From assembly GCF_905203285.1 (NCBI RefSeq), contig NZ_CAJKVK010000001.1, forward strand, positions 10,802 through 74,801: a stretch of 64,000 nt of DNA, written 5' to 3'. Shown here piece after piece: positions 11,390 through 44,462 of this stretch. Source of the stretch: an uncultured Succinatimonas sp. (GTDB lineage: Bacteria > Pseudomonadota > Gammaproteobacteria > Enterobacterales > Succinivibrionaceae). Position 1 is the stretch's first letter. Every line of letters starts with the position of its first letter. Below the pieces are notes generated by a model. That model was given only the letters and a program-made list of their open reading frames with translations, was not told where the DNA came from and searched no databases. The position numbers were made by a program, and so were the translations under genes.

Positions 11390-11450
11390 AAAATAGTTTT
11401 GCGGATTTTGTCAGTAAATGTCCGCAATTTGTGATAGTTGTCACTGTAGT

Positions 11451-11466
11451 CAAACGTTTGCGCAAA
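11451..11466. promoter_or_regulatory. overlapping palindromes CAAACGTTTG and TTTGCGCAAA (LacI-family operator-like) about 50 bp upstream of transketolase
   Basis: CAAACGTTTG is the core of classic PurR/CcpA/LacI-type operators. Seen directly in the sequence. Confidence 0.45.
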
Positions 11467-11516
11467 TATACTCAAATTATATAGTCCAATAAATGTTTTT
11501 TAATTTCGGAGTATGT

Positions 11517-12332: not shown

Positions 12333-12337
12333 AGAAA

Positions 12338-13252: not shown

Positions 13253-13280
13253 TAAAAACCGTTTTTATCACTGTGAGGAG

Positions 13281-14282: not shown

Positions 14283-14356
14283 TCCCTCTATTTAAGCCTC
14301 CACGTTCGTGGAGGCTTTAACTTAGCCTCAGTCTGTTCCCTATATTCTGCGGTTTT

Positions 14357-14869
14357 ATGATGAAAATATTAGATTTTTTAAATAATAAATTAGAGATGTG
14401 GATTTGCGTGATCTTGATGTCGGCTATCGGTATCGTACTCAGCTTCCAGGTTATCATGCGCTATATTTTCCATTCATCTTTAGGCTGGTCAGAAGAACTT
14501 GCACGTTATATGTTCGTGTGGCTTGTTTTTATCGGCATCAGCTATGGTGCCAAAGTCATGCGTCATATTAAGATTGATGCCTTTTTATTTTTGTTCCCTA
14601 AAATTCTTCGTCCGTACGTAGTTATCTTAGGTGACGTTCTTTCATTGGTTTTTGCTATAGCCGTAATTTATTTAGGTTGGGGCATGGTTCAGACTCAGCT
14701 TATGATTGGACAGTTATCACCTGCAATGCGTATTCCTATGTGGATTGTGTATTTAGCTCCTATCGTAGGCTTCGGATTGGCATCCATTCGCCTGATTCAG
14801 GGAATTATTTACCATATTAAGCATTTAAAAGACGGCGAAGGTGATCCTAATGCCGAGATTGAGCAGTAG
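14357..14869 (+). CDS. TRAP transporter small permease (DctQ family)
   Basis: 170 aa with 4 TM segments, located between the DctP and DctM genes. Confidence 0.8.
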   Translation: MMKILDFLNNKLEMWICVILMSAIGIVLSFQVIMRYIFHSSLGWSEELARYMFVWLVFIGISYGAKVMRHIKIDAFLFLFPKILRPYVVILGDVLSLVFAIAVIYLGWGMVQTQLMIGQLSPAMRIPMWIVYLAPIVGFGLASIRLIQGIIYHIKHLKDGEGDPNAEIEQ

Positions 14870-14880
14870 GGAGTAGCAAG

Positions 14881-16161
14881 ATGGCATCAACAGTTCTTTT
14901 AGTTTCTCTTGCGATCTTTTTGATCTTAAATATGCCGGTCGGTCTTGCAATCGGCTTGTCCACTCTTGCGGCTTTACTTACCGGAGAGACATTAAGCCTT
15001 AATGCTCTTTCTCAGCAGATGGTAATTAGCTGCGATTCTTTCCCGATTCTGGCTGTTCCTTTGTTTATTTTGGCTGGCGACTTGATGGGAGCCGGCGGCG
15101 TATCCCGCAGAATTTTAAATGTCTGTAACGTCTTTTTCGGACGCATCACCGGCGGTCTTGCAATCGTTACCGTTTTAGTCTGCATGTTCTTTGCCGCAGT
15201 TTCAGGCTCTGGTCCTGCAACCGTGGCTGCCGTAGGCTCCATGGTTATTCCTACCATGATCGAGCTTGGCTACAAGCGCTCTTTCGTTTTGGCCTTAGTC
15301 GCAACGGCCGGAACTATCGGCGTAATTATTCCGCCGTCTATTCCGATGGTGCTTTACGGTGTTTCTACCGGAACTTCCGTTACCTCTTTGTTTATGGGCG
15401 GATTTTTCCCAGGCTTTTTAATCGGCGGCGCTTTGATGCTCTATTCCTATATTTACTGCAAGGTAAAAGGATATAAGGGACACAGTGAGCCGTTCTCCGG
15501 TAAAAAAGCATGGGATGCCGTATGGGAAGCCAAGTGGGCTTTAATTAACCCGATCATCATTTTAGGCGGTATTTACGCCGGTATCTTCACTCCTACCGAA
15601 GCTGCCGCAATCGCCGCTTTGTATGCATTTATCTGCGGTGCCTTCATTCACCGCGAGCTTGATGCAAAAGGCTTATTTAAAGCAATTGCCACTTCATGCT
15701 GCACGACCGGTACCGTTATGGTAATTTTGGCATGCGCGACCGGTTTCTCCAAGATTTTAACCGTAGAGCAGGTTCCGCAGCTTGTAACTCAAACATTGCT
15801 TGAGATCACCGACAGCAAGATTGTCTTGTTAATTTTGATTAACATCATGCTGCTTATCGTCGGATGCTTTATGGATCAGACCCCTGCAATTTTGATTTTG
15901 GCTCCGATCCTTTTACCGGTTGCCGTTTCTTTAGGTCTCGATCCGGTTCACTTCGGCCTTATCATGGTCGCAAACCTTGCCATCGGCTTTATTACCCCGC
16001 CTTTGGGCATGGCGCTCTTCGTGGCGGCTCGTATTTCCAATACGAAGCTTGAAGTCGTGTTAAAAGGCATCGTTCCGTTTATCTTCCTGACTATCGGTAC
16101 TTTGACTTTGATTACTTTCATTCCACAGATCACTATGTTCTTGCCGAATTTGATGAAGTAA
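14881..16161 (+). CDS. TRAP transporter large permease (DctM family)
   Basis: 426-aa polytopic membrane protein of the DctM family. Confidence 0.88.
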   Translation: MASTVLLVSLAIFLILNMPVGLAIGLSTLAALLTGETLSLNALSQQMVISCDSFPILAVPLFILAGDLMGAGGVSRRILNVCNVFFGRITGGLAIVTVLVCMFFAAVSGSGPATVAAVGSMVIPTMIELGYKRSFVLALVATAGTIGVIIPPSIPMVLYGVSTGTSVTSLFMGGFFPGFLIGGALMLYSYIYCKVKGYKGHSEPFSGKKAWDAVWEAKWALINPIIILGGIYAGIFTPTEAAAIAALYAFICGAFIHRELDAKGLFKAIATSCCTTGTVMVILACATGFSKILTVEQVPQLVTQTLLEITDSKIVLLILINIMLLIVGCFMDQTPAILILAPILLPVAVSLGLDPVHFGLIMVANLAIGFITPPLGMALFVAARISNTKLEVVLKGIVPFIFLTIGTLTLITFIPQITMFLPNLMK

Positions 16162-16195
16162 TAGATAGTTAATTAATAGATATTTAAGAAAAATT

Positions 16196-16233
16196 AAAAC
16201 CGATCTTGCGTAAATGTAGGATCGGTTTTTTTG
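16196..16233 (+). terminator. rho-independent terminator after the TRAP operon
   Basis: Stem AAAACCGATC/GATCGGTTTT followed by a TTTTTTT run. Confidence 0.7.
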
Positions 16234-16277
16234 TTGGATTGCACTACGGTTTTTATCCGATAAAAAAGCTCCTAATG

Positions 16278-16532
16278 TTAATAGTGCTCTTTAGATTGGA
16301 TAATTTCACAGCAATCGTTTTTTACAACGAAAACTAAGCGATTCTTTAAGTCGATTCGTCTGCTCCAATATCCCGAATACTCATATTTTAATTGTTCAGA
16401 GCTCCCCGCTCCTTCATATGGAGATCTTGTTATAGCCTCAATTAAGTTATTTATTTTCTTTAATGCCTTTTTATCTGTTTGCTGCCAATACAGATACTCG
16501 TCCCATGCTGCTTTAGAAAAGATAATATTCAG
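16278..16532 (-). CDS. YoeB/Txe-family type II toxin (RelE superfamily mRNA interferase). No canonical start codon
   Basis: Manual translation gives LNIIFSKAAWDEYLYWQQTDKKALKKINNLIEAITRSPYEGAGSSEQLKYEYSGYWSRRIDLKNRLVFVVKND...KEHY. This is collinear with E. coli YoeB (SEESWDDYLYWQETDK...FWSRRI...RYHY), and the catalytic E/R/H/Y positions are conserved. The frame opens immediately after the antitoxin TAA with CTG AAT ATT ATC, and there is no in-frame ATG, GTG or TTG. Confidence 0.75.
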   Translation of the reverse strand: MNIIFSKAAWDEYLYWQQTDKKALKKINNLIEAITRSPYEGAGSSEQLKYEYSGYWSRRIDLKNRLVFVVKNDCCEIIQSKEHY

Positions 16533-16799
16533 TTATTCCTCCAAAGCTCTTAACTCTTGCATTGTTTTTGTGACTTTTTCTTCATTGTTTAAAGACCAAA
16601 TGCTGTGATCCAAAGCTTCCCGATTGGCTTTAGAGTAAAAAGAATCAGCAGTAGGAGTAAAAGGCAACTTACGAAGATTAACCATTTGTGTTAAACACAT
16701 GCGGATCACGGATGTTAAATCAAGGCCCATTGCCTTTGCTGCTTCTTGTGCTTGTTTTTTTAACGTTTCATCAATGCGAACTTGTAATAATGCTGACAT
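16533..16799 (-). CDS. RelB/DinJ-family type II antitoxin
   Basis: 88 aa. VRIDETLKKQAQEAAKAMGLDLTSVIRMCLTQMV...LPF parallels E. coli DinJ (VRARIDEDLKNQAADVLAGMGLTISDLVRITLTKV...LPF). Confidence 0.85.
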   Translation of the reverse strand: MSALLQVRIDETLKKQAQEAAKAMGLDLTSVIRMCLTQMVNLRKLPFTPTADSFYSKANREALDHSIWSLNNEEKVTKTMQELRALEE

Positions 16800-16974
16800 C
16801 TTTGAACTTCTACACTAAATGAATCATGTCTTAACTATAATTGAAAATGTTTTGCGTTACAAACACATACAATACTATTCATAATGTTCATCTGAAGAAA
16901 GTGTTAAAACTTAAATAGTTAGCGTTAATGATTTGTTGAAAAACAAAGATAAATCTATAGAAAGTTGATTTAAG

Positions 16975-17017
16975 AATAAATAAAAATAATGAGCCTTAGT
17001 TTTCATGAAAGGCTCAA
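16975..17017 (-). terminator. rho-independent terminator downstream of the MFS-EIIA/binding-protein operon
   Basis: Stem TGAGCCTT/AAGGCTCA, followed on the minus strand by TTATTTTTATTT. Confidence 0.6.
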
Positions 17018-17043
17018 ATAAAGATGAAACAGTGTTTGTAAGC

Positions 17044-17853
17044 TTATTTACTCTGCCAACCCGGTAAACGTAAATCAAGTTGACCTTTTTCCGTAGGATT
17101 TAATGATCCGAAGCCGAAAGCTTCAAGCAGGGTTTGTGCTTCATCACTTTCTCTTAAAAAGCGGGTGAAGACCAACGCGTCATCGCGTTTTGGCGAGTCG
17201 TCAATAATTAAAGTGTAGTAAAGAATATCAGGATAATATCCGCGCGGAACTACCCAGTATGAACCGTTTGCCATTCTGGTTTTGGAGCTTATTAAAGGGA
17301 GGGTTATAAAACCTGCTTCCACGTTTTGGTTTGCAACCATGGAATGGACTTGGTATTCGTGCTCAGGATAGAAAATTTTATTTTTCAGATATCCTGTCGG
17401 AAATCCTTTGTTAGAGACGATTTGCTTTGCGGCAAAACCCACAGGGGTAAGTCTTGGGTCAGGAATTGCCAGTGATTTTAGTTTTTTGGAGTAAATTGCA
17501 GAAATATTACCGTTAAATAAGCGCGGATTAGCTGACCAAAGAATAAGTTTGGCGCGGGTAAAGGGAATAAAGGATGCAGGGGAGGTCTTATTTAAACGAA
17601 TGAGACTAATAGGCAGTCTTTCATCCGGACTTATTATGACATCGCACTTTAACTTATTATTGATAATTCCGGTATAGATATTGGATGCGGTAGTGTAGTG
17701 AGCATCAAATTCAACCGGAACTTTAGGCGTAAGTGCTTCAAGAGCGTTGTACATTTGCGCGGTGGCGCAAACTTGAAGTTTTTTATCTGAAGCTTGAGCG
17801 CAAAAAGATAAAGACACGATGGCAGCTAAAGCAATAAGTTTTTTAAACAGCAT
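17044..17853 (-). CDS. periplasmic substrate-binding protein, ModA (molybdate/tungstate-binding) fold
   Basis: Signal peptide. Blockwise similarity to ModA (LQVCATAQMYNALEAL vs ITVFAAASLTNAMQDI; DVIISPDERL vs DLFISADQKW). No ABC permease or ATPase genes are adjacent. Confidence 0.6.
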   Translation of the reverse strand: MLFKKLIALAAIVSLSFCAQASDKKLQVCATAQMYNALEALTPKVPVEFDAHYTTASNIYTGIINNKLKCDVIISPDERLPISLIRLNKTSPASFIPFTRAKLILWSANPRLFNGNISAIYSKKLKSLAIPDPRLTPVGFAAKQIVSNKGFPTGYLKNKIFYPEHEYQVHSMVANQNVEAGFITLPLISSKTRMANGSYWVVPRGYYPDILYYTLIIDDSPKRDDALVFTRFLRESDEAQTLLEAFGFGSLNPTEKGQLDLRLPGWQSK

Positions 17854-17870
17854 AAAATTTACAAAAATAA

Positions 17871-19715
17871 TTAATCAAAGTGTTGGGCATAACGGGCAAT
17901 GCGCGTAACAACTTCGCGCGCGGTTCCGGCATGACGAAGTGAATCGGCAAATCCCTGCTCGTTTAAAACCAATGATAAACGACCTAAAAGATTTAAATGG
18001 GTTTGTCCGTCATCAGGACTTGCGATTAAAAATATAAGATCGCATTTTTTACCGTCATAAGATCCTAAATCAAGAGGTTTTTCCAAAACGGCAATGGCAA
18101 TAGCCGGTCGTTTCACGCATTCGCCGCGGGCGTGCGGAATGGCTATACCTTCAGCAATGCCGCAAGGAGTAACTTTTAGCCTTTTATTAAGCTCGGATCT
18201 GAATTCTGAAATAGATGAGATAACACCACTGCGGGCAAGACAGGACACAAGCGGACTTAAAACCTCTTCTAATGTTTCTCCTTTAAGCTTTAGCAGTACG
18301 TTATTTTCATCGATTGCATAACGGATAAGTCTTTGCGTGTCATGAATCATTCCGTCTGAAGTTCTTAGTTTTTCAAGGGTGGAAAGCATGGATTTGAACA
18401 AAATGCCGTTTAGCTTGTAGTAACGGCTATAGATCCAAAGCGAAATTAAAATAAGCAGACAGACGATGACAAGAGCCAGACGGAAGCTGAACTCCTGATG
18501 AACGAATGTGATTTCACGGGGAATGTAAGCTGCCGCGGATATAGAAAGACCGGACATGAAAAGGGCAATGCCGGTGCCTAATTTTGCAGAGAATGTTTGC
18601 AGTGAAAAGATTAGGGCTTCAGAGCGGATGCCGTTTTTAAATTCACCGTAATCAACGCAGTCGGCAAGCATTGAAGTTGTTATTCCAATCATAAGAGCCA
18701 TACCGCAATTGGCAAGGCAGAAGCTTACGCACAGTACTATCGGGTTACCGGTCGTAAGTGACAGGAAAATCATGGAAATAAAACCGCATAACATCAAAAT
18801 GCCTGATATATAAAATGCGGCTTTGCGGGAAATAATGCCGATTATTTTGGGCAACAAAATATACGTTAAAAATTGAATTACGGCACCGCCTGACATAATG
18901 AGAGTGAAATGCTTGGCGGTAATTACATGCTCTTGGAGGAAATAGAAAATAAGTGAGCTGTTGACGATTCCGATGGCAATTTGCTGCAAAACCATAATAG
19001 AAACGGTAGCTAGCAGCTGATCGTTTTTGGTTATAAGTTCAAAGGCTTTACTTACTGAGAATTTAGCGTATTTAAATTTTTGTCGGCGCGTTTTGAGGGT
19101 AAAACACATTAAAAACTGAGTTATTACGAAAAATAATGCGCAGGCGGCGGCAAGCGTGAAAAATCCTTCTGATAAGTCATGCTCTGCGTTAAATGTAAGC
19201 TTGCCGATTAAAAATAACCCGAAAATAAGAATGAACTGTCCGCCGACAACCGTCATGGCACGGGGAATTGCGGTCATGATTAGGCGATCTTTGCCGACAG
19301 TACCGAAATTAGGAATTAATGACCAAAACGGTATATCCATCAGCGAATAAGCGATGATGGTAAGAAAATAAAAGCTAAGACCGTATAAAGTAAGATCGGA
19401 TCCTTGAAGATTCGGTTTATAAAACAGGCAAATAACCGACGCGGCGGTTAACAGACTGCCGATGATGATCCAAGGTTTGAATTTACTAAAACGCGCAGCG
19501 GTGTTATCTATCGCGTAGCCTAAAAAGGGATCGAGAAAAGCGTTGGCGATTTTGCCTATTAAGAAAATAAAACCGATAAATGCTGCGGATAATCCGTAAA
19601 AATCGGTAAAGTACAGCATCAGATAAGCGCCGATGAACCAATAAATGATGTCTTTGCTCATGGCGCCCAAACCGAAAGCGATCTTTTCGCTTAAAGTTAC
19701 ATGGGATTCTTTCAT
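17871..19715 (-). CDS. GPH-family (MelB-like) MFS cation symporter fused to a C-terminal PTS EIIA-2 (IIA-Fru/Ntr-type) domain
   Basis: N-terminus carries the GPH signature LDPFLGYAIDNTAARFSKFKPW. The C-terminal ~150 aa carry the EIIA-2 active-site motif GIAIPHAR. Confidence 0.8.
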   Translation of the reverse strand: MKESHVTLSEKIAFGLGAMSKDIIYWFIGAYLMLYFTDFYGLSAAFIGFIFLIGKIANAFLDPFLGYAIDNTAARFSKFKPWIIIGSLLTAASVICLFYKPNLQGSDLTLYGLSFYFLTIIAYSLMDIPFWSLIPNFGTVGKDRLIMTAIPRAMTVVGGQFILIFGLFLIGKLTFNAEHDLSEGFFTLAAACALFFVITQFLMCFTLKTRRQKFKYAKFSVSKAFELITKNDQLLATVSIMVLQQIAIGIVNSSLIFYFLQEHVITAKHFTLIMSGGAVIQFLTYILLPKIIGIISRKAAFYISGILMLCGFISMIFLSLTTGNPIVLCVSFCLANCGMALMIGITTSMLADCVDYGEFKNGIRSEALIFSLQTFSAKLGTGIALFMSGLSISAAAYIPREITFVHQEFSFRLALVIVCLLILISLWIYSRYYKLNGILFKSMLSTLEKLRTSDGMIHDTQRLIRYAIDENNVLLKLKGETLEEVLSPLVSCLARSGVISSISEFRSELNKRLKVTPCGIAEGIAIPHARGECVKRPAIAIAVLEKPLDLGSYDGKKCDLIFLIASPDDGQTHLNLLGRLSLVLNEQGFADSLRHAGTAREVVTRIARYAQHFD

Positions 19716-19800
19716 TACACCTTAAAAATGTTAAATTTATGAAAAAGCACATGATTTTACCGTAGATTCGGCGAAAACCTGCGCTTTTTCTGTTTTTTCA

Positions 19801-21630
19801 TCACTCAACTGTGACGGACTTCGCTAAATTGCGAGGTTGATCAACATCCGTACCGTTAATTAGTGCTACGTGATAAGCAAGCAGCTGCAGCGGTATGGTG
19901 TAAATCACGCTTTGCAAATATTGTCCTGATACTTTGAGCTTGATGACGCGGGTGGTGGCATCTTCTTTGATTGCGGTTTTGTCTGAGGTGAAGATGTATA
20001 AAATACCGCCGCGGGCCTTTACCTCTTCAATGTTGGATTTAAGTTTGCCGATAAGCTCGTTGTCAGGAGCCACAACCACAACCGGCATTGAAGCGTCGAT
20101 AAGAGCAATCGGTCCGTGCTTTAATTCACCTGCGGCATAGCCTTCGGCATGGATGTAGCTTATTTCTTTAAGCTTTAAGGCGCCTTCAAGAGCTATAGGA
20201 TACATTTCACCGCGGCCCAGGAAGAGGCAGTGATGTTTTCCTGCAAATTCTTCGGCAAGTTTTTCAACGGTAGCAGCTGTTTTAAGCGCACTGCTGATTT
20301 CATCGGGAAGCTTTTTAATCTCTTTAATTATTTCAACGGCCTGCTCTTTACTTAAAGTCCCTTTTACCCGTCCGATGCGGATTGCAAGGAGAATAAGAGC
20401 GATAAGCTGAGTGGTAAAAGCCTTGGTGGAGGCAACACCGATTTCAGCACCGGCTCTGGTTAAAAATACGTAATCCGATTCTCTTACAAGTGATGAGCCC
20501 GGAACGTTGCAGATGGCAAGTGAGCCTTTATATCCTGAATTCTTGGCTTTTCTTAAAGCGGCAAGAGTATCGGCGGTTTCGCCTGACTGGGATAAAGTTA
20601 CCAGAAGAGAATTTGGCAAAGTGATGCTGTTGCGGTAGCGATACTCTGAAGCGATTTCAACTTCCGTATGCACCTTGGCGAGATTTTCAAGGAAGAATCT
20701 GCCGACAAGTCCTGCGTGATATGAGGTACCGCAGGCGACTATCTGAATGTTGTCCACATCCTTAAAACTGTTTTCATCAGTGCCGAGGAAAGCTTCAAAG
20801 CTGACGTTATCTTCTTCGATACGGCGTTCGAAAGTATAGGCAACTGCTCGCGGCTGCTCAAAAATTTCTTTTTGCATGAAGTGGCGGTACGGGCCTTTTG
20901 ATACCGAGTAGACGTCAAGCTCGCTTTCTTTGACGGTTTTTTCGATAGGCTTTAAGTCCTTGTCGTAAATCTTAAGCTCTTTGCGCTTTAAAACTGCGAT
21001 TTCATCATCATCAAGATAGATAAAGCGCTGTGTCACGGGCAGCAGCGCCAACACGTCGGAGGCGACGAAGTTTTCTCCGAAGCCTAATCCGATAACGATA
21101 GGAGAGCCTTTACGAGCGGTGTATAAAGTATCAGGCTCGTGTTTGTTGATAAGCGCGATGCCGTAGGTGCCTTCGACGTCGTTTAAAGCAAGGCGCAATG
21201 CCTTTTTGGTGTCGGACTCGGTTTGGGCGTAATAAGAAATTAAATGAGCCAAGACCTCGGTATCGGTTTGAGAGTGAAATTCAAAACCTTCTTTTTCAAG
21301 TTTGGCTTTAATCTCTTTGAAGTTTTCAATAATGCCGTTATGCACCAGGGCAAAATCACCGCTTATATGCGGATGGGCGTTTTCAACCGAAGGACGGCCG
21401 TGGGTTGCCCATCTGGTGTGAGCGATGCCTAAAGAGCCAGAAAAAGACTCTTTGCTTACGGCTTCTTTTAATGACGAGACTTTGCCGGTGACGCGTACGC
21501 GCTTGAAGTCATTGTCATGAATGACGCACAGACCTGCCGAGTCATATCCGCGGTATTCAAGGCGGGATAAACCTTCAAGTAAAATGTCTACGATATCTCT
21601 TTGAGCAATGGCTGCAACAATTCCGCACAT
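19801..21630 (-). CDS. glmS: glutamine--fructose-6-phosphate aminotransferase
   Basis: MCGIVAA N-terminal nucleophile, two SIS domains, 609 aa. Confidence 0.95.
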   Translation of the reverse strand: MCGIVAAIAQRDIVDILLEGLSRLEYRGYDSAGLCVIHDNDFKRVRVTGKVSSLKEAVSKESFSGSLGIAHTRWATHGRPSVENAHPHISGDFALVHNGIIENFKEIKAKLEKEGFEFHSQTDTEVLAHLISYYAQTESDTKKALRLALNDVEGTYGIALINKHEPDTLYTARKGSPIVIGLGFGENFVASDVLALLPVTQRFIYLDDDEIAVLKRKELKIYDKDLKPIEKTVKESELDVYSVSKGPYRHFMQKEIFEQPRAVAYTFERRIEEDNVSFEAFLGTDENSFKDVDNIQIVACGTSYHAGLVGRFFLENLAKVHTEVEIASEYRYRNSITLPNSLLVTLSQSGETADTLAALRKAKNSGYKGSLAICNVPGSSLVRESDYVFLTRAGAEIGVASTKAFTTQLIALILLAIRIGRVKGTLSKEQAVEIIKEIKKLPDEISSALKTAATVEKLAEEFAGKHHCLFLGRGEMYPIALEGALKLKEISYIHAEGYAAGELKHGPIALIDASMPVVVVAPDNELIGKLKSNIEEVKARGGILYIFTSDKTAIKEDATTRVIKLKVSGQYLQSVIYTIPLQLLAYHVALINGTDVDQPRNLAKSVTVE

Positions 21631-21648
21631 GGTTTTTATCCTTTTTCG

Positions 21649-23034
21649 TTATTTCTTGTTTTTGACAGGGCGCTGGTAATTTTTAAAGTAAATAGGTCTT
21701 ACGCGCGTAATGACCAAAGCTTTTTCGGGAACTTCCTTGGTTACGGTGGTACCGGCGCCGATTGTGGCGCCTTTGCGCACGGTAACAGGGGCTACAAGCT
21801 GAGTGTCGGATCCGACGAACACCTCATCTTCAATCGTGGTTCGGTGCTTGTTGGCGCCGTCGTAATTGCAGGTGATGGTTCCGGCGCCGATATTAACATC
21901 AGTTCCGATGTCACTGTCACCTAAATAGCTTAAATGACCTGCTTTGGTTCCAAAGCCTATATGAGAATTTTTTACCTCAACGAAGTTGCCGACATGAACT
22001 TCATCCTCAAGTACGTTGCCAGGGCGCAGTCTTGCAAAAGGTCCTATGGTGGTATGGCGCATGAGCTTAGATTTTTCCATGACGGTGTAAGGGGAAATGA
22101 TGCTGTCATCGCCTATTGAAACATCTTTTAGCACGCATCCGGCACCTATGATAACGTTATTGCCTAAAATTACGTTGCCTTCAATAATGACGTTTACATC
22201 AATAAAGACATCTTTACCGTGAGTTAAAGTGCCGCGCAGATCAAAGCGCTTGGGGTCGGCAAGAGTTACGCCTTCCTCAAGTAAGGTTTTTGCTGCTCTT
22301 TCCTGATAGAGCCTTTCGATAAAGCTAAGCTGAACTTTGTTGTTGACGCCGCATAATACCGAAAACTCCGGTGCCTTTACCGGATTTACTTCTTTTCCGT
22401 CAGCGCGAAGAAGGGCGACTAAATCGGTAAGGTAATACTCGCCTTGGGCATTTTCATTATTAAGCTTGGGCAAATATTCATTAAATACGCAGGCAGGTGC
22501 TGCCATCATGCCGGTATTTACTTCATTTATAAGTTTTTCTTGAGCATTCGCGTCTTTTTCTTCGACGATTTTTTCAATCAGGCCGTCGTTATTTCTTACG
22601 ATGCGTCCGTAGCCGAAAGGATTATCGGCAATGGCGGTAAGAAGACACATTCCGTCTTTGGGGCAGGCCTTAAGCAAAGCTTTAAGATCGTCTGTTGGTG
22701 TAAGTGGAGTATCTCCGTAAAGGACGACGACGTTTGAATCTTTTTGTACGCAGGGCATGGCGGTATTGACTGCATGTCCCGTACCTAATTGTTCTTTTTG
22801 CTCGACGATATTTATTTTTGAGAAAATCTCTTGCGGTAAAGAGGTTAGAGACTGTCTTACGATTTCTCCGCCGTGTCCTACTACGACATGGATTTTAAGA
22901 GGGTCTAAAGTTAAAGAGGTGTCGATAACATGCCTAAGCATGCTTTTGCCTGCAACTTTATGTAAAACTTTAGGCAAGTCAGAATGCATGCGCTTGCCTT
23001 TGCCTGCTGAAAGAATAACGATTTCAAGGGACAT
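21649..23034 (-). CDS. glmU: bifunctional UDP-GlcNAc pyrophosphorylase / GlcN-1-P acetyltransferase
   Basis: N-terminal LSAGKGKRM nucleotidyltransferase motif, C-terminal left-handed beta-helix hexapeptide repeats, 461 aa. Immediately upstream of glmS. Confidence 0.93.
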
Positions 23035-36011: not shown

Positions 36012-37499
36012 TTGAAAATGGCAAATTACTTTAATACTTTAAATTTAAGACAGAAACTTGCCCAGCTTGGATGCTGTGAATTAATGGATAGAAGCGAATT
36101 TGCAGACGGCTGCAATTTCCTTAAAGGCAAAAAGTGCGTAATTATCGGTTGCGGAGCTCAGGGCTTGAATCAGGGCCTTAACATGCGCGATTCAGGTCTT
36201 GATGTCAGCTATGCTCTTCGTCCTGCCGCTATTGCAGAAAAACGTGCTTCTTTTAAGCGTGCTACCGAAAACGGCTTTAAGGTCGGTACTTATGAAGAAT
36301 TAATTCCGACTGCCGATTTGGTCATCAATTTGACTCCTGACAAGCAGCATTCCAATGTTGTTGAGTCCGTTATGCCTTTGATGAAGCCTGGTGCAGCTTT
36401 AGGTTATTCCCACGGCTTTAATATCGTTGAAGTCGGTCAGCAGATCCGTAAAGACATTACTGTTGTCATGATGGCTCCTAAGGCCCCCGGTACTGAGGTT
36501 CGTGAAGAGTATCGCCGCGGTTTCGGCGTCCCGACTTTGATTGCCGTTCATCCTGAAAACGATCCTAACGGTGAAGGCTGGGCAATTGCTAAGGCATGGG
36601 CCAGTGCAACCGGCGGTGATCGTGCAGGCGTTTTGCGCTCTTCCTTCGTTGCTGAAGTTAAGTCGGACCTCATGGGCGAGCAAACCATTTTGTGCGGTGT
36701 TTTGCAGGCAGCCTCAATTCTCTGCTTTGATCGCATGGTCGAGCTCGGTATGGACAAAGCTTATGCATGCAAGTTGATCCAATACGGTTGGGAAACCGTT
36801 TGTGAGGCATTAAAGCAGGGCGGCATCACCAACATGATGGATCGTTTGTCAAATCCTGCCAAGATCCGCGCATGCGAGCTTGCCGATGAGCTTAAGTGCA
36901 TCTTAAAAGATCTGTACTTAAAGCATATGGATGACATTGAAAGCGGTGAGTTCTCCCGTGTCTTGATGGAAGACTGGGCCAACGGTGACGTCAAGCTTTT
37001 GACCTGGCGTGAGAATTTTGCAAAATGCGGTTTTGAAAATGCTCCGCAGTGTGACACCAAGATCAGTGAGCAGGAATACTTTGACAAGTGCATTCTGTTG
37101 GTTGCCTTCGTTAAGGCCGGTATTGAGCTGTCCTTTGAAACCATGACTCATTCAGGTATTTACCCTGAGTCTGCTTACTATGAGTCATTGCATGAGTTGC
37201 CTTTGATTGCCAACTTGATTGCTCGTCGTCGTCTTTATGAGATGAATGTGGTTATTTCCGATACCGCCGAGTACGGTGATTACCTCTTTGCCAACGCTGC
37301 AATTCCTCTCTTAAAGGACTTTATGGCTAAGATTGATCTTGATGTTATGGGCAAAGGTCTTGATGGCGACAATGCTGTTGATAACATTGAGCTTATCCGT
37401 ATTAACGATAAGATCAGAAATCATCCGATTGAGGTCGTTGGACGCAAGCTTCGTGCTTACATGTCAGACATGAAGGAAATTGCCGTAGGCAACAATTAA
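36012..37499 (+). CDS. ilvC: ketol-acid reductoisomerase, class II
   Basis: 495 aa. Rossmann motif GCGAQG and enterobacterial-type long form. Confidence 0.95.
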
Positions 37500-37520
37500 T
37501 CTTTTAAAGATTAAATAAAG

Positions 37521-37560
37521 AAAAACCTCCTAAGCTTCTTCATGCAAGGGAGGTTTTTTA
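37521..37560. terminator. bidirectional rho-independent terminator after ilvC
   Basis: Stem AAACCTCC/GGAGGTTT followed by TTTTTT. T-runs are present on both strands. Confidence 0.75.
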
Positions 37561-37575
37561 TAATTAGTCAGTGTT

Positions 37576-38187
37576 TTATGAAAATTGGTTTTTTATATAT
37601 TCTTCGAATTCTTTTTGGTTGAAGGTATAAACATCATTAAAGCAAAAATTTTTAAATGAAGACAACTTAAAGCATATAAGGTGTTCACTTTTTGTTGTTT
37701 TGGCAATGGATTTAGCTAAGTTAATGAAACTATTTGAGTATTCAACATTTGCCGGATCTGATAATCTTTTTTGTATTAATATAGGGTCTTTTGAGTTTAT
37801 ATTTGCCTTATCGTTGTATACTAATATATAGTCAATATATATGCGCGAAGCGGAAATATTTGCATTATCTTTTTGCAATATATCAAAAAGGATCAATAGG
37901 CTGTCATAGATCTTCTTTTTTAATTCTGCTTGTACTATCTTATTAATTTGTCCATTCTTAAATTCAATAAATAACCACTTTTTATTTTTGTTATTAAAAA
38001 CAAGGCAATCATTTGAAGAGGGCGGTTCTTTTAAATAAAGATTTTTTATATATTGTTCCTTGACTTTATCAAAATTTATAACTTCAATACAAGAATTGGT
38101 CATATATTCATTTTTGTTTTTATCGTGAGATGCATTTTTTAAACTGGTTAAGTTGCTTTTAAAAATATCTAAATTTCTATTAATCAT
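37576..38187 (-). CDS. hypothetical 203-aa protein, partner of the upstream ATPase (AT-rich island)
   Basis: ORF sits 7 nt downstream of the ATPase gene on the same strand. Lys/Asn/Ile-rich. I could not recognise any catalytic or HTH motif (no HNH, TOPRIM E/DxD or PD-(D/E)xK). Confidence 0.5.
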   Translation of the reverse strand: MINRNLDIFKSNLTSLKNASHDKNKNEYMTNSCIEVINFDKVKEQYIKNLYLKEPPSSNDCLVFNNKNKKWLFIEFKNGQINKIVQAELKKKIYDSLLILFDILQKDNANISASRIYIDYILVYNDKANINSKDPILIQKRLSDPANVEYSNSFINLAKSIAKTTKSEHLICFKLSSFKNFCFNDVYTFNQKEFEEYIKNQFS

Positions 38188-38194
38188 TTCGTTT

Positions 38195-39427
38195 CTAAAT
38201 ATCTTCTAGTTGTTGTAATGGAACAAAAAGTTTTTTATAAATTTGTTCTATGTCTGTTGAAACATCTACAATAGTTGCCATTTCTTCGGAAATACATTCT
38301 GAAAGATAATATTTACATGTGTCGGCAATTTCATATTTTCCTGCAAAAACTTGAATTGCCCTTAAAAAATAAGGACTATGTGTATTTAGTAACACATGCA
38401 AATTAAATTCTTTTTGTAAAAGGACAATTAATTCAGCCAGAAGCAATTGCCATTGCGGATGCAAATGTGTTTCCGGCTCGTCCAGTATTATTACACCATT
38501 ATAGTTTATAGCATTGTTTAATAATAAGGTCTTTAAAATAACAAAGGTCTTAAGACCGGTTGAAAGATTTCGAATATCTAATAATTTACCGTTTTCTTGG
38601 AATTTAAAGATATTATTTTTATCCCGAACAATTCTTCCTTTACAGGTTTTTTCAATTAAAGTAAAAATATTTTCTAATTTATTGCTATTAATTAATTCAT
38701 CTAATAAGTTGTTATTTTTTGATTCTAATTTCTTAAGTAAGTGTATTTTGTGTTTAAAACTATCAAAGTAAGGAACAGGTAAAGAATCAATAATTGAGAA
38801 GTCATCAATATAAATAGCTTCGTTTATGATATCAAAATTTATTGTTTTTTGTATGGATTTAACAATATTGTTATTGAATTCAAGTTTGATGCTATTATCT
38901 TTTAACTGTAATTTAATATAATTAGATTCGCTGTTAAATATATTACTAACTTGATTGTTAAACTCATAATTAATATTTTTTGTTAACACTAATTTAGTTA
39001 ATTCGTCATCAGTAATATTTAATGTTTCAAGAATTATATTGATAATATCTTTAAATGTTGAGTCTGATATTTCCTTATCTGTATAAATATCAAGATCACA
39101 TAAATTTATAATATCTTTTTGTAATGTATTATAATTATATGGATTATTTTTATTGTTTGAAATTAATGTTGAAGCAATATTTTCCAATGCTTCTTGTGTA
39201 AAGTTAGGCCTTTTCTGAATAATTACAAAAGACAATCTATTTATTATACTGTTTATTCTCTCGCTCTTTACTTTTTGTTCTAAAGAAAAGAAAGAGTTAA
39301 AAGTGGAAAACAGCGCTCTACTTACAGTGCTTTTACCTGTGTTGTTTTCACCTGCAATAACTGTAATTCCGTTTATTTCAATTTTAGCTTGCTTAAGTTT
39401 TCCGATATTTTTTAATGATAATTGCAT
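38195..39427 (-). CDS. ABC/SMC-like ATPase (AAA_21/AAA_15 type) of the kind found in OLD, PARIS AriA, Septu PtuA, Gabija GajA and RloA modules
   Basis: Walker A GENNTGKST, signature-like LSTGLK, Walker B plus D-loop ILDEPETHLHP, and an H-loop in NTHSPYF. 410 aa. Strongly AT-rich coding sequence. Confidence 0.8.
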   Translation of the reverse strand: MQLSLKNIGKLKQAKIEINGITVIAGENNTGKSTVSRALFSTFNSFFSLEQKVKSERINSIINRLSFVIIQKRPNFTQEALENIASTLISNNKNNPYNYNTLQKDIINLCDLDIYTDKEISDSTFKDIINIILETLNITDDELTKLVLTKNINYEFNNQVSNIFNSESNYIKLQLKDNSIKLEFNNNIVKSIQKTINFDIINEAIYIDDFSIIDSLPVPYFDSFKHKIHLLKKLESKNNNLLDELINSNKLENIFTLIEKTCKGRIVRDKNNIFKFQENGKLLDIRNLSTGLKTFVILKTLLLNNAINYNGVIILDEPETHLHPQWQLLLAELIVLLQKEFNLHVLLNTHSPYFLRAIQVFAGKYEIADTCKYYLSECISEEMATIVDVSTDIEQIYKKLFVPLQQLEDI

Positions 39428-39475
39428 ATTATTATCTCAATTAATTTTAAGCGTATGTTCGCTTAATTATTTACA

Positions 39476-41491
39476 TTATAGCAGTCCCTTTAACATATTA
39501 AGTCCTCTATCAAGCATCATATCGCTTTCTTCTTTATCAATTTTTTTAGGAGCCCCTAAAAATTCACGCGCAAGATCTTCCTGCGGCATTTCGGCGATAA
39601 ACCGGCTGGGCTCATTTGCAGTTGCTTCACGTCCTCTTTTTCTTTCGCGGCAATAGGTAATGGTAAGCTCTACTTTTGCGCGAGTTACTCCTACATAAGC
39701 AAGGCGTCTTTCTTCTTCGATGCCGTTTGGCAGATCAAGGCTGTTGCGGTGCGGGAGGATCCCCTCCTCCAAGCCGATTAGAAAGACGTACGGAAATTCA
39801 AGTCCCTTGGCCGAATGTAATGTCATAAGCTGGACAGCGTCGTTTTCAGATCCGTCCTCATTTTTATCCATCATTTCGCGAAGACCGAGCTTGTCTACGG
39901 CTTGCGAGAATAATAAAGGAGGCTCTCCGCGGCGGCCTTTTACCAAATCTTCTATCCAGCTCATTAAAGTACGGACATTTTTTATTTTGACGTCAACGCT
40001 TTTATCGTTGGCTCCCGTTCCTCTTAGATAGCCTTCGTAACCGATAATATCAATAAGCTTTTGAGCAAGCTGCAAATCCTGATGAGTCTTAAGAAGATTT
40101 TTTAAGCTGTTATACAGCTCTAAAAAAGATGTAATAGATTTGTTTTGACTGGAGGAAAGCTTGGCGTAAAGCTGTTTTGAACGTAAAGCAGTATATAGAT
40201 TTACCGAATACTCCGAGGCAACTGATGCTATGGTGCTTAAAGTTTCAGCACCGATGCCGCGGCGCGGAATATTGATAATTCTAAGTAGGGCAGCATTATC
40301 GCCTTCATTTGAAAGCAAGCGGCACCAGGCGAGGATATCCTTTACTTCCATCATGTCAAAAAAGCTGCTGCCTCCGGTTATAACGCAAGGGATACGGGCA
40401 GAGCGGAAAGCTTTTTCAATGCTGCGTGACTGAGTGTTGCTGCGATAAAGTACGGCATAATCTCGCCACGGTTTACGGTATAAATAGCGGTGCTTTAAGA
40501 TTTCAGAAGCGACTCTTTCGCTTTCAGCGTTTTCATCCTGTACTTCAATGACGGCAATTTTTTTGCCTTCATCCAAGTTTGAAAATAATGATTTTTTAAA
40601 TAAGTGCTCATTGTTTTCAATGATTTTGTTGGCGCAATGCAGAATTCTTCCTGAAGAACGGTAATTTTGCTCAAGCTTAATAACTTTCAGATCAGGAAAA
40701 TCTTGCGCCAATATGTTGATATTTTCCGGACGGGCACCACGCCAGGAATAAATAGACTGATCGTCATCGCCTACTACAGTAAAACGGCGTCTTTTGCTTA
40801 CCAACACTTTTAGCAGTTCATATTGAGTAGTATTTGTATCCTGATACTCATCGACAAGAACATAGCGAAAATAATTTTCCCATTTGGAGGCTGTTTCCCG
40901 GTCGCTTTTTAGAAGTCTTGTGGTTAAAAAAATCAAATCATCAAAGTCAGCGGCGTTACAGGCTTTAAGGTAAGCTTGATATTCTTCGTAAAGAGAAGAC
41001 AGCGTTGTCTTCGGTACTATGTCTTGAGGGGTTTTTAATTCACCTTTCCATAAAGAAATTTGCTGCAGTGCATCAAAAATGCAGTCTCGCTCGGATTTAC
41101 CGTCAAGCATTAAAGGGTAATTTTCTCGAATAAGATCGCGCACGATTTTAAATTGATCAGATTCGTCAAATAAGGTGAAATTGCGTTTAAGCCCGACTTT
41201 ATTATGTTCTACGCGCAAAATGCCGAGGCCTAAAGAATGGAAAGTTGAAATCCAGATCTCTTTTGCAGATTCCTGACCTAATTCCTGAGCTACTCGTTCT
41301 CGCATTTCCGCCGCGGCCTTATTGGTAAAAGTGACAGCGCAGACGGTTTTTGCAGGAAGTTTATGTCCGGTTATCAGGTTAACAATTTTGGCGGTAATTA
41401 CTCGGGTTTTTCCGGATCCGGCTCCGGCTAAAACCAGACATGGCCCGTCAATATAAGTGACGGCCTGCTGTTGGGCATCGTTAAGTCGCAT
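39476..41491 (-). CDS. rep: ATP-dependent DNA helicase Rep
   Basis: MRLNDAQQQAVTYIDGPCLVLAGAGSGKTRVIT... is near-collinear with E. coli Rep. 671 aa of the UvrD/Rep SF1 family. Confidence 0.92.
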   Translation of the reverse strand: MRLNDAQQQAVTYIDGPCLVLAGAGSGKTRVITAKIVNLITGHKLPAKTVCAVTFTNKAAAEMRERVAQELGQESAKEIWISTFHSLGLGILRVEHNKVGLKRNFTLFDESDQFKIVRDLIRENYPLMLDGKSERDCIFDALQQISLWKGELKTPQDIVPKTTLSSLYEEYQAYLKACNAADFDDLIFLTTRLLKSDRETASKWENYFRYVLVDEYQDTNTTQYELLKVLVSKRRRFTVVGDDDQSIYSWRGARPENINILAQDFPDLKVIKLEQNYRSSGRILHCANKIIENNEHLFKKSLFSNLDEGKKIAVIEVQDENAESERVASEILKHRYLYRKPWRDYAVLYRSNTQSRSIEKAFRSARIPCVITGGSSFFDMMEVKDILAWCRLLSNEGDNAALLRIINIPRRGIGAETLSTIASVASEYSVNLYTALRSKQLYAKLSSSQNKSITSFLELYNSLKNLLKTHQDLQLAQKLIDIIGYEGYLRGTGANDKSVDVKIKNVRTLMSWIEDLVKGRRGEPPLLFSQAVDKLGLREMMDKNEDGSENDAVQLMTLHSAKGLEFPYVFLIGLEEGILPHRNSLDLPNGIEEERRLAYVGVTRAKVELTITYCRERKRGREATANEPSRFIAEMPQEDLAREFLGAPKKIDKEESDMMLDRGLNMLKGLL

Positions 41492-41492: not shown

Positions 41493-43427
41493 TTAGTAAA
41501 TGGAGAATTTCTGATCTCGTCCTAAAAGATCATAGGTAAAGAAACTAAGATCGTTTTTATCATTCATCGAAACTTCAATGTTTTGAAGGGCATAGGCTTC
41601 AGCCGTAAGAGTTTCGTTTTCATTGCACAGGCTTATAAACGGCGTTTTTAATTCAGCGCTTAATGAAGAAAGGTTCATTAAGCAATTTCTAAGTTCTGAT
41701 GAAGTTAACCCGGTTAAATCTATTATCGGACAGAAATTCTTTTCTCCCTGAAGATATAAAGCTCCGACCGCTTCTTCAATAGCTTGCGGCAGATCGTCCG
41801 TGTTTTGGATTTCAAGAAGTTTAGCTCGATTCCATGGAGCAAAGACAGCTCCGTCATCATAATGCTCACGGCGTTTTAACAAGGAGCAAACCATATTCCA
41901 TTGTTCTTTGGTACCGACGTAAATAATGCGCATGTCGGTTTGGACTTTGGCACTGATTATTTCAGCGACAAGCCGCTTTAAGATCACGCTGCGTCCTGAC
42001 AAGGAGTAAAGGCATGGGGATAATTGCAGGGAATACAAAGCAACTGCGGATAATACCGGAGAGTACGTTTTAGGCTGCAGCGGAACGGTTTGCAAAGAAA
42101 AAGATAAAAGACGTTCAAGATTATTAAGTCTTGTAAGCAGCGTTTCTCTATCTTTGCACAAGGCCTCATTCGGATCTTTATAGGGAAAAGCAAGATTGAT
42201 GCGCTTAAACGGGATATGCATATATTCAAGGCCTTGAGCCAATGAAGCTGCCGCCTCAGCGCCGGCCTTGTCGTCATCAAGAGCTATATAAAACATTCTT
42301 TCATAGACAGGATGTTCTTGAATGTAGTCAAGGAGCTTACGGATATTTGAGACTCCGCCTAAGCTTACGGCACTATAGCCCAATGTTTCGATACTTAAAG
42401 CGTCAAATTCGCCTTCGGTGATAAAGATCATGCCGGGTTTATCTAAAGCATTTTGATTAAAAATTCCGGCAGATCCTTGTTTCCTGATGCGATCTTTACT
42501 GCGTGAATCGGTATTTCGCGCCATATAGGCAGTTTCGCTGTAAGGAATAATTACTGCCTGCCAGACGATTTTATCTCCGGTTCGCGGATCGATTCCGGCG
42601 GTGAAATCATTATCAAAACCAAGACGGAATTTTTCTGCTACCGTTTCTGAAATTCCTCTTAATCTGAAATAGTCGGTTTGTAAACGGCGGCTTGCGCATT
42701 GCTTTAAATATTCTGTGTAATTGTGTCTTACTTCAGTTCTGAAATCCGAAAAGTGGCTGTCGCTTTGTCCAAAAGTGTTTTTGTTTCCTGATCCGATAGC
42801 GTTAAAGTTGTCTCTTACGCCAAAAACAGCGCCTTGAGTAGGGTGAAAGGAGCTGCGGGCTGAATTGTTAAGATCTTGAGAATCGTCATTTAGCGGATCA
42901 AAATTATGGAATAAAGGATCATTTTCGTCTCGTTTGTGGATAGAAAAATCATTAAAAGGAACAGTATTTGCCTTATCGTTTTCATCACGAAAATTACTGT
43001 CGGCAATACCGAAGCTTACGGGACCGGGAGTTTTTCCTGAGGTAAAATCAAGATTGTCATCTGCTTCGTCATTATCATGAAGTCTGAAGTCGTTTTGTTT
43101 TTCTTGTCCGCTAAAATCGTCGTTAGCTTCAATAAATTCGTTATCTCCGGTGCTTAAAAACAATTCACAGGCTTTATCAAATTGATCTTTAAAATCAGAA
43201 AGACCGAAGTCCAGACCGATAATTTCGAAAATATCGTAGGTTGCATTACAGCTAAAGCAATGAACGGTTTGATTCTTCGGGTTATAGCTCATGCTCGGAT
43301 GGATATCTTGATGATTAGGATTCAAGCAGCGAAAAGGAGCATTAATATTAATGCCTTTGTTGCGCAGATACTCAGGAAGTTGTGTTTTAAGATATTCTTT
43401 GGTTTTGGCAAAATCGTTGTATAACAT
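41493..43427 (-). CDS. primase-like protein with an N-terminal CHC2 zinc finger, a low-complexity D/N/F-rich linker, a DnaG-type TOPRIM domain and an uncharacterised C-terminal domain
   Basis: CHC2 zinc finger in CLNPNHQDIHPSMSYNPKNQTVHCFSCN. YLKQCASRRLQTDYFRLRGISETVAEKFRLGFD resembles the DnaG linker. TOPRIM motifs in IFITEGEFDALS and YIALDDDKAGAEAA. Confidence 0.7.
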   Translation of the reverse strand: MLYNDFAKTKEYLKTQLPEYLRNKGININAPFRCLNPNHQDIHPSMSYNPKNQTVHCFSCNATYDIFEIIGLDFGLSDFKDQFDKACELFLSTGDNEFIEANDDFSGQEKQNDFRLHDNDEADDNLDFTSGKTPGPVSFGIADSNFRDENDKANTVPFNDFSIHKRDENDPLFHNFDPLNDDSQDLNNSARSSFHPTQGAVFGVRDNFNAIGSGNKNTFGQSDSHFSDFRTEVRHNYTEYLKQCASRRLQTDYFRLRGISETVAEKFRLGFDNDFTAGIDPRTGDKIVWQAVIIPYSETAYMARNTDSRSKDRIRKQGSAGIFNQNALDKPGMIFITEGEFDALSIETLGYSAVSLGGVSNIRKLLDYIQEHPVYERMFYIALDDDKAGAEAAASLAQGLEYMHIPFKRINLAFPYKDPNEALCKDRETLLTRLNNLERLLSFSLQTVPLQPKTYSPVLSAVALYSLQLSPCLYSLSGRSVILKRLVAEIISAKVQTDMRIIYVGTKEQWNMVCSLLKRREHYDDGAVFAPWNRAKLLEIQNTDDLPQAIEEAVGALYLQGEKNFCPIIDLTGLTSSELRNCLMNLSSLSAELKTPFISLCNENETLTAEAYALQNIEVSMNDKNDLSFFTYDLLGRDQKFSIY

Positions 43428-44284: not shown

Positions 44285-44361
44285 GGTCCCGTAGCTCAGT
44301 TGGATAGAGTATCGGTTTCCGAAGCCGAGGGTCATGAGTTCGAATCTCATCGGGATCGCCA
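44285..44361 (+). tRNA. tRNA-Arg (anticodon CCG)
   Basis: Manual cloverleaf fold. Acceptor stem GGTCCCG/CGGGATC, anticodon loop TTCCGAA, T-arm GGTTCGAATCC-like (GAGTTCGAATCTC), 3' CCA encoded. Confidence 0.85.
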
Positions 44362-44377
44362 GTCAAGCTTCTCTAAT

Positions 44378-44462
44378 GCGAAAGTGGCGAAATTGGTAGA
44401 CGCGCTAGCTTCAGGTGCTAGTACCGCAAGGCGTGAGGGTTCGAGTCCCTCCTTTCGCACCA
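44378..44462 (+). tRNA. tRNA-Leu (anticodon CAG)
   Basis: Acceptor stem GCGAAAG/CTTTCGC, anticodon loop TTCAGGT, long variable arm, T-arm GGTTCGAGTCC, 3' CCA encoded. Confidence 0.85.

Follow-up and report, generated by a model that had tools for sequence, protein, structure and literature searches.

A predicted PD-(D/E)xK-fold protein encoded beside an ABC-type ATPase in an uncultured Succinatimonas, a candidate new family of two-gene defence module

The DNA analysed here, hereafter the window, is a 64,000-nucleotide stretch from an uncultured Succinatimonas sp. (assembly GCF_905203285.1, contig NZ_CAJKVK010000001.1, positions 10,802 to 74,801), in which a 203-residue protein, hereafter the partner, is encoded directly downstream of an ATPase of the ATP-binding cassette (ABC) type. 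Judging from residue conservation, structure modelling and analogy with characterised systems, we consider the partner to be, with a probability of roughly 70%, a stand-alone, metal-dependent nuclease effector of the PD-(D/E)xK fold that works in a two-gene module with the upstream ABC ATPase as its sensor, the pair representing a new sequence family within an established type of defence system. The analysis supports the assigned fold, conserved residues of catalytic type, the integrity of the ATPase motifs, the obligatory pairing of the two genes and their foreign base composition, and it places relatives of the pair occasionally in a prophage, on a phage scaffold or in a defence island.

A divergent restriction-endonuclease fold in the partner protein

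An AlphaFold2 model of the partner, built with an alignment, reached a mean predicted local distance difference test score of 89 and a predicted template modelling score of 0.83. The chain runs from a strand at residues 35-38, ending in F39-D40, through a short helix (39-47) to a strand at 61-65 preceded by S58-x-D60, a strand at 70-77 that carries E75-F76-K77, a helix at 83-107 with K91-K92-x-Y94-D95-S96, and a strand at 118-124 followed by N125. As modelled, D60 opens one strand and the ExK motif lies in the next, and the order of elements is that of a restriction-endonuclease core with its acidic residue and ExK on consecutive strands. The C-terminal 75 residues were modelled with lower confidence and have no fold assignment.

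The residues that a PD-(D/E)xK nuclease would use for catalysis are also those that the family conserves. When 257 full-length members are aligned, the residues S58, D60, E75, F76 and K92 are conserved in 100%, D40 in 99.6% and K77 in 97.7%, with arginine at position 77 in the remaining six. From the model and this conservation we predict that D60, E75 and K77 make up the active site, D40 and K92 being additional residues of invariant type. As K77 is occasionally replaced by arginine, whereas K92 on the next helix never varies, K92 might share or assume a catalytic or phosphate-binding role; migrated lysines are known in some restriction enzymes.

Remote sequence links lead in the same direction. 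When 63 relatives of the partner were scanned member by member against the Pfam and PADLOC models, all resulting matches were sub-threshold; the Pfam family most often matched was SduA_C, the nuclease domain of Shedu (6 of 63 members, best 2.6e-4), and the PADLOC models most often matched were three HEC-02B models (5, 3 and 2 members, about 10 of the 63 in all, at 1e-4 or worse). Two further relatives, P0184 (2.5e-5) and P0229 (2.7e-5), match HEC-02B over residues 21-92, where the predicted core lies, the P0184 match covering residues 21-88; P0184 also matches Pfam NERD at 0.0049, its 17.8 bits falling short of the 22.1-bit cut-off. HEC-02B, NERD and SduA_C are all families of PD-(D/E)xK nucleases. 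Neither Shedu (SduA_C/DUF4263) nor NERD can claim the family as a member, since the window partner matches neither and its relatives stay below the Pfam gathering threshold. Foldseek returned no match below E 0.028 in the PDB, although its top matches were nonetheless PD-(D/E)xK enzymes, a weak corroboration. Taken together, the sequence links and the model suggest that the partner is an uncatalogued and very divergent member of the PD-(D/E)xK fold, with scores that are moderate rather than overwhelming.

Searches with the window partner itself gave no HNH, TOPRIM, DUF4435, DUF4276, RloB or helix-turn-helix (HTH) match in Pfam, NCBIfam, PADLOC or PHROGs at E ≤ 10, and no match among the PDB sequences, against which the family profile found a single, spurious haemagglutinin (E 0.13). 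We rejected HNH, TOPRIM, HTH regulator, antitoxin and membrane protein as identities for the partner, as they had neither family nor fold support.

A preliminary description of the window, made from the letters of the sequence, had placed a 203-residue open reading frame (ORF) at positions 37576-38187, and the frame, on the minus strand, is intact from ATG to stop, with the N-terminus that was quoted there. It had also described the product as extremely rich in lysine, asparagine and isoleucine and as devoid of Cys/His clusters and of HNH, TOPRIM or HTH motifs, all of which agrees with what we find: the composition is 13.3% Asn, 13.3% Lys and 10.8% Ile, the four cysteines (33, 61, 172, 182) and two histidines (21, 169) are scattered, and the family searches returned no such domain. 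The same description had stated that PD-(D/E)xK is lacking, and this part does not stand, as D60, E75 and K77 are fixed across 257 homologues and lie on the expected elements of a confident model. Finally, it had named a remote-homology assignment to a known effector family as the result that would overturn its view of the protein; our searches make an assignment at the level of fold or superfamily, with moderate scores, and reach no named family.

The partner is always accompanied by an ABC-type ATPase

Homologues of the partner are numerous and widely scattered. We found 213 in a database clustered at 90% identity, and a profile of 63 homologues retrieved 1,756 clusters at 50% identity, 456 of them with E ≤ 1e-30; the best 150 clusters listed are all stand-alone proteins of about 130-235 residues. 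A motif-based scan with one genome per species located relatives in at least 187 of about 185,000 representative genomes. Their hosts are mostly Lachnospiraceae and other Clostridia, and mostly gut anaerobes, and they further include a metagenome-assembled genome of Bacteroides thetaiotaomicron as well as Campylobacter, Treponema, other Spirochaetales, Centipeda and Selenomonas. In both the homologue search and the species-genome scan, the nearest relatives are in Clostridia, with at most 48% identity. The scan returned no 100%-identical Succinatimonas locus, even though its patterns match the window exactly, so that either the window genome is not a species representative or the representative lacks the pair.

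We searched the 80 best loci of the species-genome scan with the window ATPase by tblastn, and 77 of them encode an orthologous ATPase immediately upstream and in the same orientation (34-48% identity, E 1e-64 to 1e-119), and the remaining three end at a contig edge and have no upstream DNA. The ATPase is thus present in every locus where upstream DNA exists, and we conclude that the pairing is obligatory. Furthermore, all four diverse metagenome or genome contexts encode an AAA_15/AAA_21 ATPase of 420-433 residues directly upstream, overlapping the partner gene by 8 nucleotides; the junction overlaps in most loci, and in the window the ATPase gene is separated from the downstream partner gene by 7 nucleotides. 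Conserved homologues in a strictly kept neighbourhood indicate that the partner is more than a chance ORF.

The upstream protein belongs to the ABC ATPase clade. Its fold is that of an ABC ATPase, with the heads of SMC and Rad50 as nearest structural neighbours, and all of its nucleotide-binding motifs are intact. Among 78 orthologues, conservation is 95% or higher at the Walker A residues G26, N28, G31, K32, S33 and T34 (which are invariant in the alignment designated A4), and it extends to N287, S289, G291 and K293 of the ABC signature, to L315, D316, E317, P318, E319, H321, L322, H323, P324, W326 and Q327 and to the H-loop residues T349, H350, S351, P352 and Y353. The ratio of nonsynonymous to synonymous substitution rates against a 94%-identical variant is 0.17, a sequence signal of purifying selection on the ATPase. 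At two positions where its family is otherwise 95% or more conserved, the window ATPase has a different residue: S36 replaces glycine and F210 replaces proline, the latter within the segment Y206-x-D208-x-P210. The best PADLOC matches of the window ATPase are PD-T4-4_A (3.7e-25), the AAA_15-like AriA (3.8e-22) and HEC-02A (2.6e-21), with PtuA also matched; the first three are partial and score well under family level.

The pair adjoins a rep helicase gene in the window, and all five contigs found with an identical Rep protein carry the pair. A Succinatimonas-like contig, L092 (ENA ERZ17292904 k87_2175793), has the same arrangement of rep end, ATPase and partner with a mosaic divergence from the window: against window positions 38639-39569, which cover the 3' end of rep, the spacer and the first ~790 nucleotides of the ATPase gene, it shows 72 differences in about 930 nucleotides, and only 3 in the next ~1,100 nucleotides, which hold the C-terminal third of the ATPase, the partner gene and the terminator. 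The differences are densest at ATPase residues 10-90 and fall in the variable helical insert. This pattern points either to recombination with a breakpoint near 38640, inside the ATPase gene, or to a putative sensor region that has diversified.

Comparison with known ATPase-nuclease systems

The HEC-02 system (Hma-embedded candidate 02) combines the ABC ATPase HEC-02A with a NERD-like PD-(D/E)xK protein, HEC-02B, and requires both genes for defence (Payne et al., bioRxiv 10.1101/2024.01.29.577857). The window pair resembles it in consisting of two genes, for an ABC ATPase and a small stand-alone protein of predicted PD-(D/E)xK nuclease type; moreover, its ATPase matches HEC-02A models at 2.6e-21 and 2.3e-16, some relatives of the partner match HEC-02B over the N-terminal core (1e-4 to 2.5e-5) and one matches NERD, and the HEC-02B profiles, with about 170 positions, come near the partner in size. 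On the other hand, the window partner matches neither HEC-02B nor NERD at E ≤ 10, the ATPase matches are partial (about 74 bits, residues 244-368) and far under the level of a family member, the HEC-02A profiles cover about 340 positions against ATPases of 410-430 residues here, and most loci of the present family lie outside Hma systems. Given the unmatched partner and the partial ATPase match, we do not assign the pair to HEC-02.

Vassallo et al. (2022, PMC9519451) list PD-T4-4 of Escherichia coli ECOR58 as "ATPase, nuclease", its ORFs spanning 1,973 base pairs (bp), and Ragucci et al. (bioRxiv 10.1101/2025.07.10.664194) class it among the PD-(D/E)XK nuclease-NTPase systems, which form complexes. 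The effector of PD-T4-4 is described inconsistently, as PD-(D/E)xK (PMC12137116, bioRxiv 10.1101/2025.07.10.664194) or as HNH (bioRxiv 10.64898/2026.07.10.737580). This validated two-gene system is similar in total size to the window pair, which measures 1,852 bp, and PD-T4-4_A is the top PADLOC match of the window ATPase. However, that match aligns residues 140-358 with profile positions 164-373 of 460, and PD-T4-4_B was matched neither by the window partner nor by its 63 relatives at E ≤ 1.

Operons that join an OLD-ABC ATPase to a novel restriction endonuclease (REase) are said to have been predicted earlier, by Krishnan et al. in 2020. The WonAB system, from the WASA-1 prophage of Vibrio cholerae, belongs to this "OLD-ABC ATPase + novel REase" class, which occurs in 0.96% of genomes, and consists of an OLD-type ABC ATPase and a "variant of the PD-(D/E)xK nuclease fold"; mutants in the ATPase motifs and the WonB mutant K71A abolish defence, and inactivation of the ATPase destabilises WonB (Adams et al. 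2025, PMC12137116). It is thus a prophage-borne, abortive system dependent on the ATPase motifs and on the nuclease lysine. The window pair has the same architecture, with a small predicted nuclease that shows the same ordered motifs, h-D(G), D-h-h and h-h-E-h-K-(G), and in which K77 corresponds to the catalytic lysine K71 of WonB.

We compared the partner family with 15 WonB/novel-REase sequences from the supplement of PMC12137116. In hhalign, D40, D60, E75 and K77 fall in register with the VDG, CD and ELK motifs of WonB-type nucleases, and hmmsearch between the two families gave at most 20 bits. Both comparisons are sub-significant and do not identify the partner as WonB or the "novel REase". 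The two groups differ in that WonB-type proteins have about 140-170 residues and a conserved A-x2-Q helix, whereas the present family has about 195 residues and K-K-I-Y-D-S instead. On the ATPase side, a comparison with WonA that included its C-terminal, WonB-binding extension aligned ATPase residues 278-359 (signature, Walker B and H-loop), with no alignment in the extension and no homology beyond generic ABC motifs. In addition, the family strings IEFKNG and KKIYDS are absent from the part of the published WonAB/novel-REase hit tables that we consulted.

In Septu (PtuA/PtuB), PARIS (AriA/AriB), Gabija (GajA) and OLD systems, the effectors are of the HNH (PtuB) or TOPRIM (AriB, GajA, OLD) type. 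The partner differs from them, as it is neither HNH nor TOPRIM and its predicted fold agrees with PD-(D/E)xK. With scattered Cys and His residues, no HNH family match at E ≤ 10 and no match to PtuB, it does not qualify as a PtuB, and it likewise gave no match to the AriB, RloB or DUF4276 families.

The lack of a family-level match to HEC-02, PD-T4-4 or WonAB leads us to treat the pair as a separate sequence family of the same design, the nuclease being linked most nearly, in sequence, to HEC-02B/NERD and the ATPase to PD-T4-4_A/HEC-02A. The preliminary description had set the partner apart from the effector types it listed (HNH/PtuB, DUF4435-TOPRIM/AriB and RloB), correctly so, as no family match to them exists. 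That list was nevertheless incomplete: PD-T4-4, HEC-02 and WonAB each pair an ABC ATPase with a PD-(D/E)xK nuclease. Its proposal of an effector of uncharacterised type is therefore not supported for the fold or for the system design, and holds only in the sense that no searched library names the family. An ABC ATPase with a small PD-(D/E)xK nuclease is already a validated arrangement, and what is new is the sequence family. A false lead is thereby removed, and the pair joins a growing set of immune modules in which an ABC ATPase accompanies a restriction-fold nuclease. Because the copies of Pfam, NCBIfam, PADLOC v2.0.0 and PHROGs that we used miss the partner, a gut-microbiome census of defence systems based on these copies would overlook the family.

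Genomic context and alternative explanations

The pair has a base composition foreign to its surroundings, with a guanine-plus-cytosine (GC) content of 25.1% compared with 46.2% in ilvC, 42.7% in rep and 41.9% in the window, and with third-position GC of 0.19-0.25 compared with 0.39-0.48. In separate loci, relatives adjoin a type I-B CRISPR-Cas system, a restriction-modification unit with an HTH gene and an N6/N4 methyltransferase, and a prophage lysis cassette with an integrase. The whole pair is also carried by MT835532.1, a 40-kb human faecal scaffold labelled "Bacteriophage sp.", unverified and without annotation (locus L091, record positions 10293-22814), where it occupies locus positions 4677-6522 in the same order as in the window, with 39% identity for the ATPase and 34% for the partner, so that phage-like DNA, too, serves as a carrier of the module. 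No pair was found among the plasmids of PLSDB.

Several observations weigh against a nuclease-based defence module. The window partner matches no nuclease profile in Pfam, NCBIfam, PADLOC, PHROGs or the PDB sequences. Its sequence holds D60-x14-E75-F-K77, and the pattern D-x(10-20)-[DE]xK appears in 76% of shuffles of the partner; we accordingly rejected the string as stand-alone evidence, and, as such a string is expected by chance in one sequence, the case rests on the conservation, the structure and the weak profile links. The spatial clustering of D40, D60, E75, K77 and K92 is inferred from the topology of the model, not from coordinates, and the hhalign probability to WonB-type nucleases is only 38% with 8 sequences and 30% with 15. 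WonAB itself defends by abortive infection, without bulk DNA degradation, and its nuclease is no simple DNA degrader (PMC12137116). Finally, the 102 flanking ORFs in 28 loci are mostly housekeeping genes (glycosyltransferases, two-component systems, PolC, sigma factors), with a minority of defence genes (DndH/DndD/PbeC, Cas8b/Cas6b, AbiL, mad3-like), and the defence-island signal is therefore weak; the authors of the HEC-02 study saw an equally weak signal for most of their candidates (bioRxiv 10.1101/2024.01.29.577857).

Usual neighbours that are housekeeping genes, not defence islands, would suit a different explanation, namely that the pair is a toxin-antitoxin (TA)-like or addiction, element-stabilising or anti-plasmid module in which a nuclease toxin is restrained by the ATPase and phage defence is not the main role. 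A self-contained two-gene islet of foreign composition that is found on a prophage and a phage scaffold fits such a role, and the Pfam family AAA_21 is described as a "putative AbiEii toxin, Type IV TA system". We nevertheless regard this explanation as unlikely, as no PLSDB plasmid carries the pair and the validated systems nearest to it in architecture act against phages and require both genes; the border between abortive infection and TA being blurred, the distinction is also partly one of naming.

The view taken in the preliminary description, of an effector of a truly uncharacterised type, would here mean a non-nuclease whose likeness to the restriction fold is coincidental; it draws on the absence of a significant match of the window partner to any curated nuclease family and on the less confidently modelled, unassigned C-terminal 75 residues. 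It appears improbable, because the invariant residues are exactly the D and E-x-K set on consecutive strands, and because relatives match three PD-(D/E)xK families independently, if below threshold.

Inactive PD-(D/E)xK domains that serve in binding are known in the superfamily. The partner might accordingly use its restriction fold as a nucleic-acid-binding sensor or adaptor, with the ATPase giving the output, for instance by DNA clamping or ATP consumption; the arginine found at position 77 in 6 of 257 members and the resemblance of the ATPase to SMC and Rad50 heads, which clamp DNA, would be in keeping with this. Against it, D60 and E75 at 100% and K77 at 97.7% across more than 250 diverged sequences are what catalysis predicts, not mere binding, and the equivalent lysine mutation in WonAB, K71A, abolishes defence (PMC12137116), so that we consider a purely binding role quite improbable. 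A housekeeping module of DNA repair or recombination, comparable to Rad50-Mre11 or RecF, is hardly credible, for even though the ATPase resembles the heads of SMC, Rad50 and RecF and the window pair adjoins rep near a primase-like gene, the distribution is sporadic (187 of ~185,000 species representatives in the motif scan), the GC content of the islet is 25% where that of the genome is 42%, the flanking genes vary between loci, and the ATPase lacks a coiled-coil insertion as long as those of Rad50 or SMC proteins.

A model for the two-gene module

The reading that we prefer, a defence module with a nuclease effector controlled by an ABC ATPase, is supported by the validated analogues, in which defence depends on both genes and also, in the cases examined, on the ATPase motifs and the lysine of the nuclease. 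An anti-phage role is further suggested by the architecture, the pairing, the low-GC islet and the prophage, phage or defence contexts of some loci. By analogy with these systems, we infer nuclease activity on a DNA or RNA substrate, formation of a complex between the two proteins, a trigger that sets off the response, and a function against phages.

ABC ATPases dimerise head to head around two ATP molecules, and the ATPase of the pair probably does the same. By analogy with PD-T4-4, HEC-02 and WonAB, the dimer would bind the nuclease and either hold it in check or stabilise it, and the conserved C-terminal hairpin and helices of the ATPase (Y374, Y397, L400, P403, Q405, L407) are a candidate docking site, as in WonA. 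The helical insert after Walker A (residues ~45-160) and a beta-rich segment (169-207) are candidate sensor regions. A phage cue would alter the state of the ATPase, ATP binding or hydrolysis would then license nucleic-acid cleavage dependent on D60, E75 and K77, and this cleavage would block phage development, possibly at a cost to the cell. The precedent of WonAB argues against simple DNA shredding by the partner, and a recent study reports tRNA cleavage by related OLD enzymes.

A more specific version of this model, which we hold to be conceivable though doubtful, is that of a distinct, unnamed defence family centred on gut Clostridia and crossing phyla (Succinatimonas, Bacteroides, Campylobacter, Treponema), in which the effector, instead of simply shredding DNA, would act in a WonB-like manner on a specific late step or on a specific structure in RNA or DNA, and in which the ATPase would sense infection through its variable helical insert. 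The alignment, together with the predicted catalytic residues (D60, E75 and K77 of the partner, K32 and E317 of the ATPase), provides a ready test design, and a comparison of different ABC ATPases over one nuclease fold could reveal how the sensing and licensing steps evolved.

Layout of the locus and neighbouring genes

The features of the locus are collected in Table 1. The hairpin and T-run that follow the partner gene form a tentative terminator, recognised by inspection of the sequence and uncalled by a consensus scan because its loop exceeds the limit of that scan. The palindromic hairpin on the other side of the pair lies within the 48 nucleotides that separate the stop codon of rep (39476) from the start of the ATPase gene (39427), and could be a rep terminator or a regulatory site.

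Table 1. Positions of the gene pair, its motifs and adjoining elements in the window.
Feature	Position	Strand	Description
Low-GC islet	37500..39475		Two genes only; between ilvC (36012..37499, +) and rep/uvrD (39476..41491, -)
Partner gene	37576..38187	minus	203-residue stand-alone protein with divergent PD-(D/E)xK fold; predicted nuclease effector
Predicted nuclease core	37813..38085	minus	Partner residues 35-125; AlphaFold2 secondary structure and conservation
Codon of D40	38068-38070
Codon of D60	38008-38010
Codon of E75	37963-37965
Codon of K77	37957-37959
Codon of K92	37912-37914
ABC-type ATPase gene	38195..39427	minus	410 residues, Pfam AAA_15/AAA_21; predicted sensor or regulator of the pair
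Walker A	39326..39352	minus	ATPase residues 26-34, GENNTGKST
ABC signature	38547-38567	minus	N287-x-S289-x-G291-x-K293; just upstream of the Walker B region
Walker B, D-loop and H-loop region	38369..38494	minus	ATPase residues 312-353, ...ILDEPETHLHPQWQ ... NTHSPY
Putative terminator	37517..37556	minus	AACCTCC ... GGAGGTT then TTTTCTTTATTT; 3' of the partner gene, between the converging partner and ilvC genes
Palindromic hairpin	39447..39466	.	TTAAGCGTATGTTCGCTTAA; called terminator-like on the + strand by the consensus scan

Directly upstream of rep, the minus strand encodes at 41493-43427 a 644-residue Toprim_2 (DnaG-like) protein whose middle region is long, acidic, rich in Asn and of low complexity. 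Elsewhere in the window, an 88-residue ORF at 16533-16799 on the minus strand (MSALLQVRIDETLKKQAQEAAKAMGLDLTSVIRMCLTQMV...), which we take to resemble antitoxins of the RelB/DinJ type, sits in a dip of 34% GC; no ORF of at least 30 residues comes after it in that orientation, and it may thus be an antitoxin left as an orphan by decay of its toxin gene. Two tRNA genes, tRNA-Arg(CCG) at 44285-44361 and tRNA-Leu(CAG) at 44378-44462, occupy the region 44285-44462 on the plus strand.

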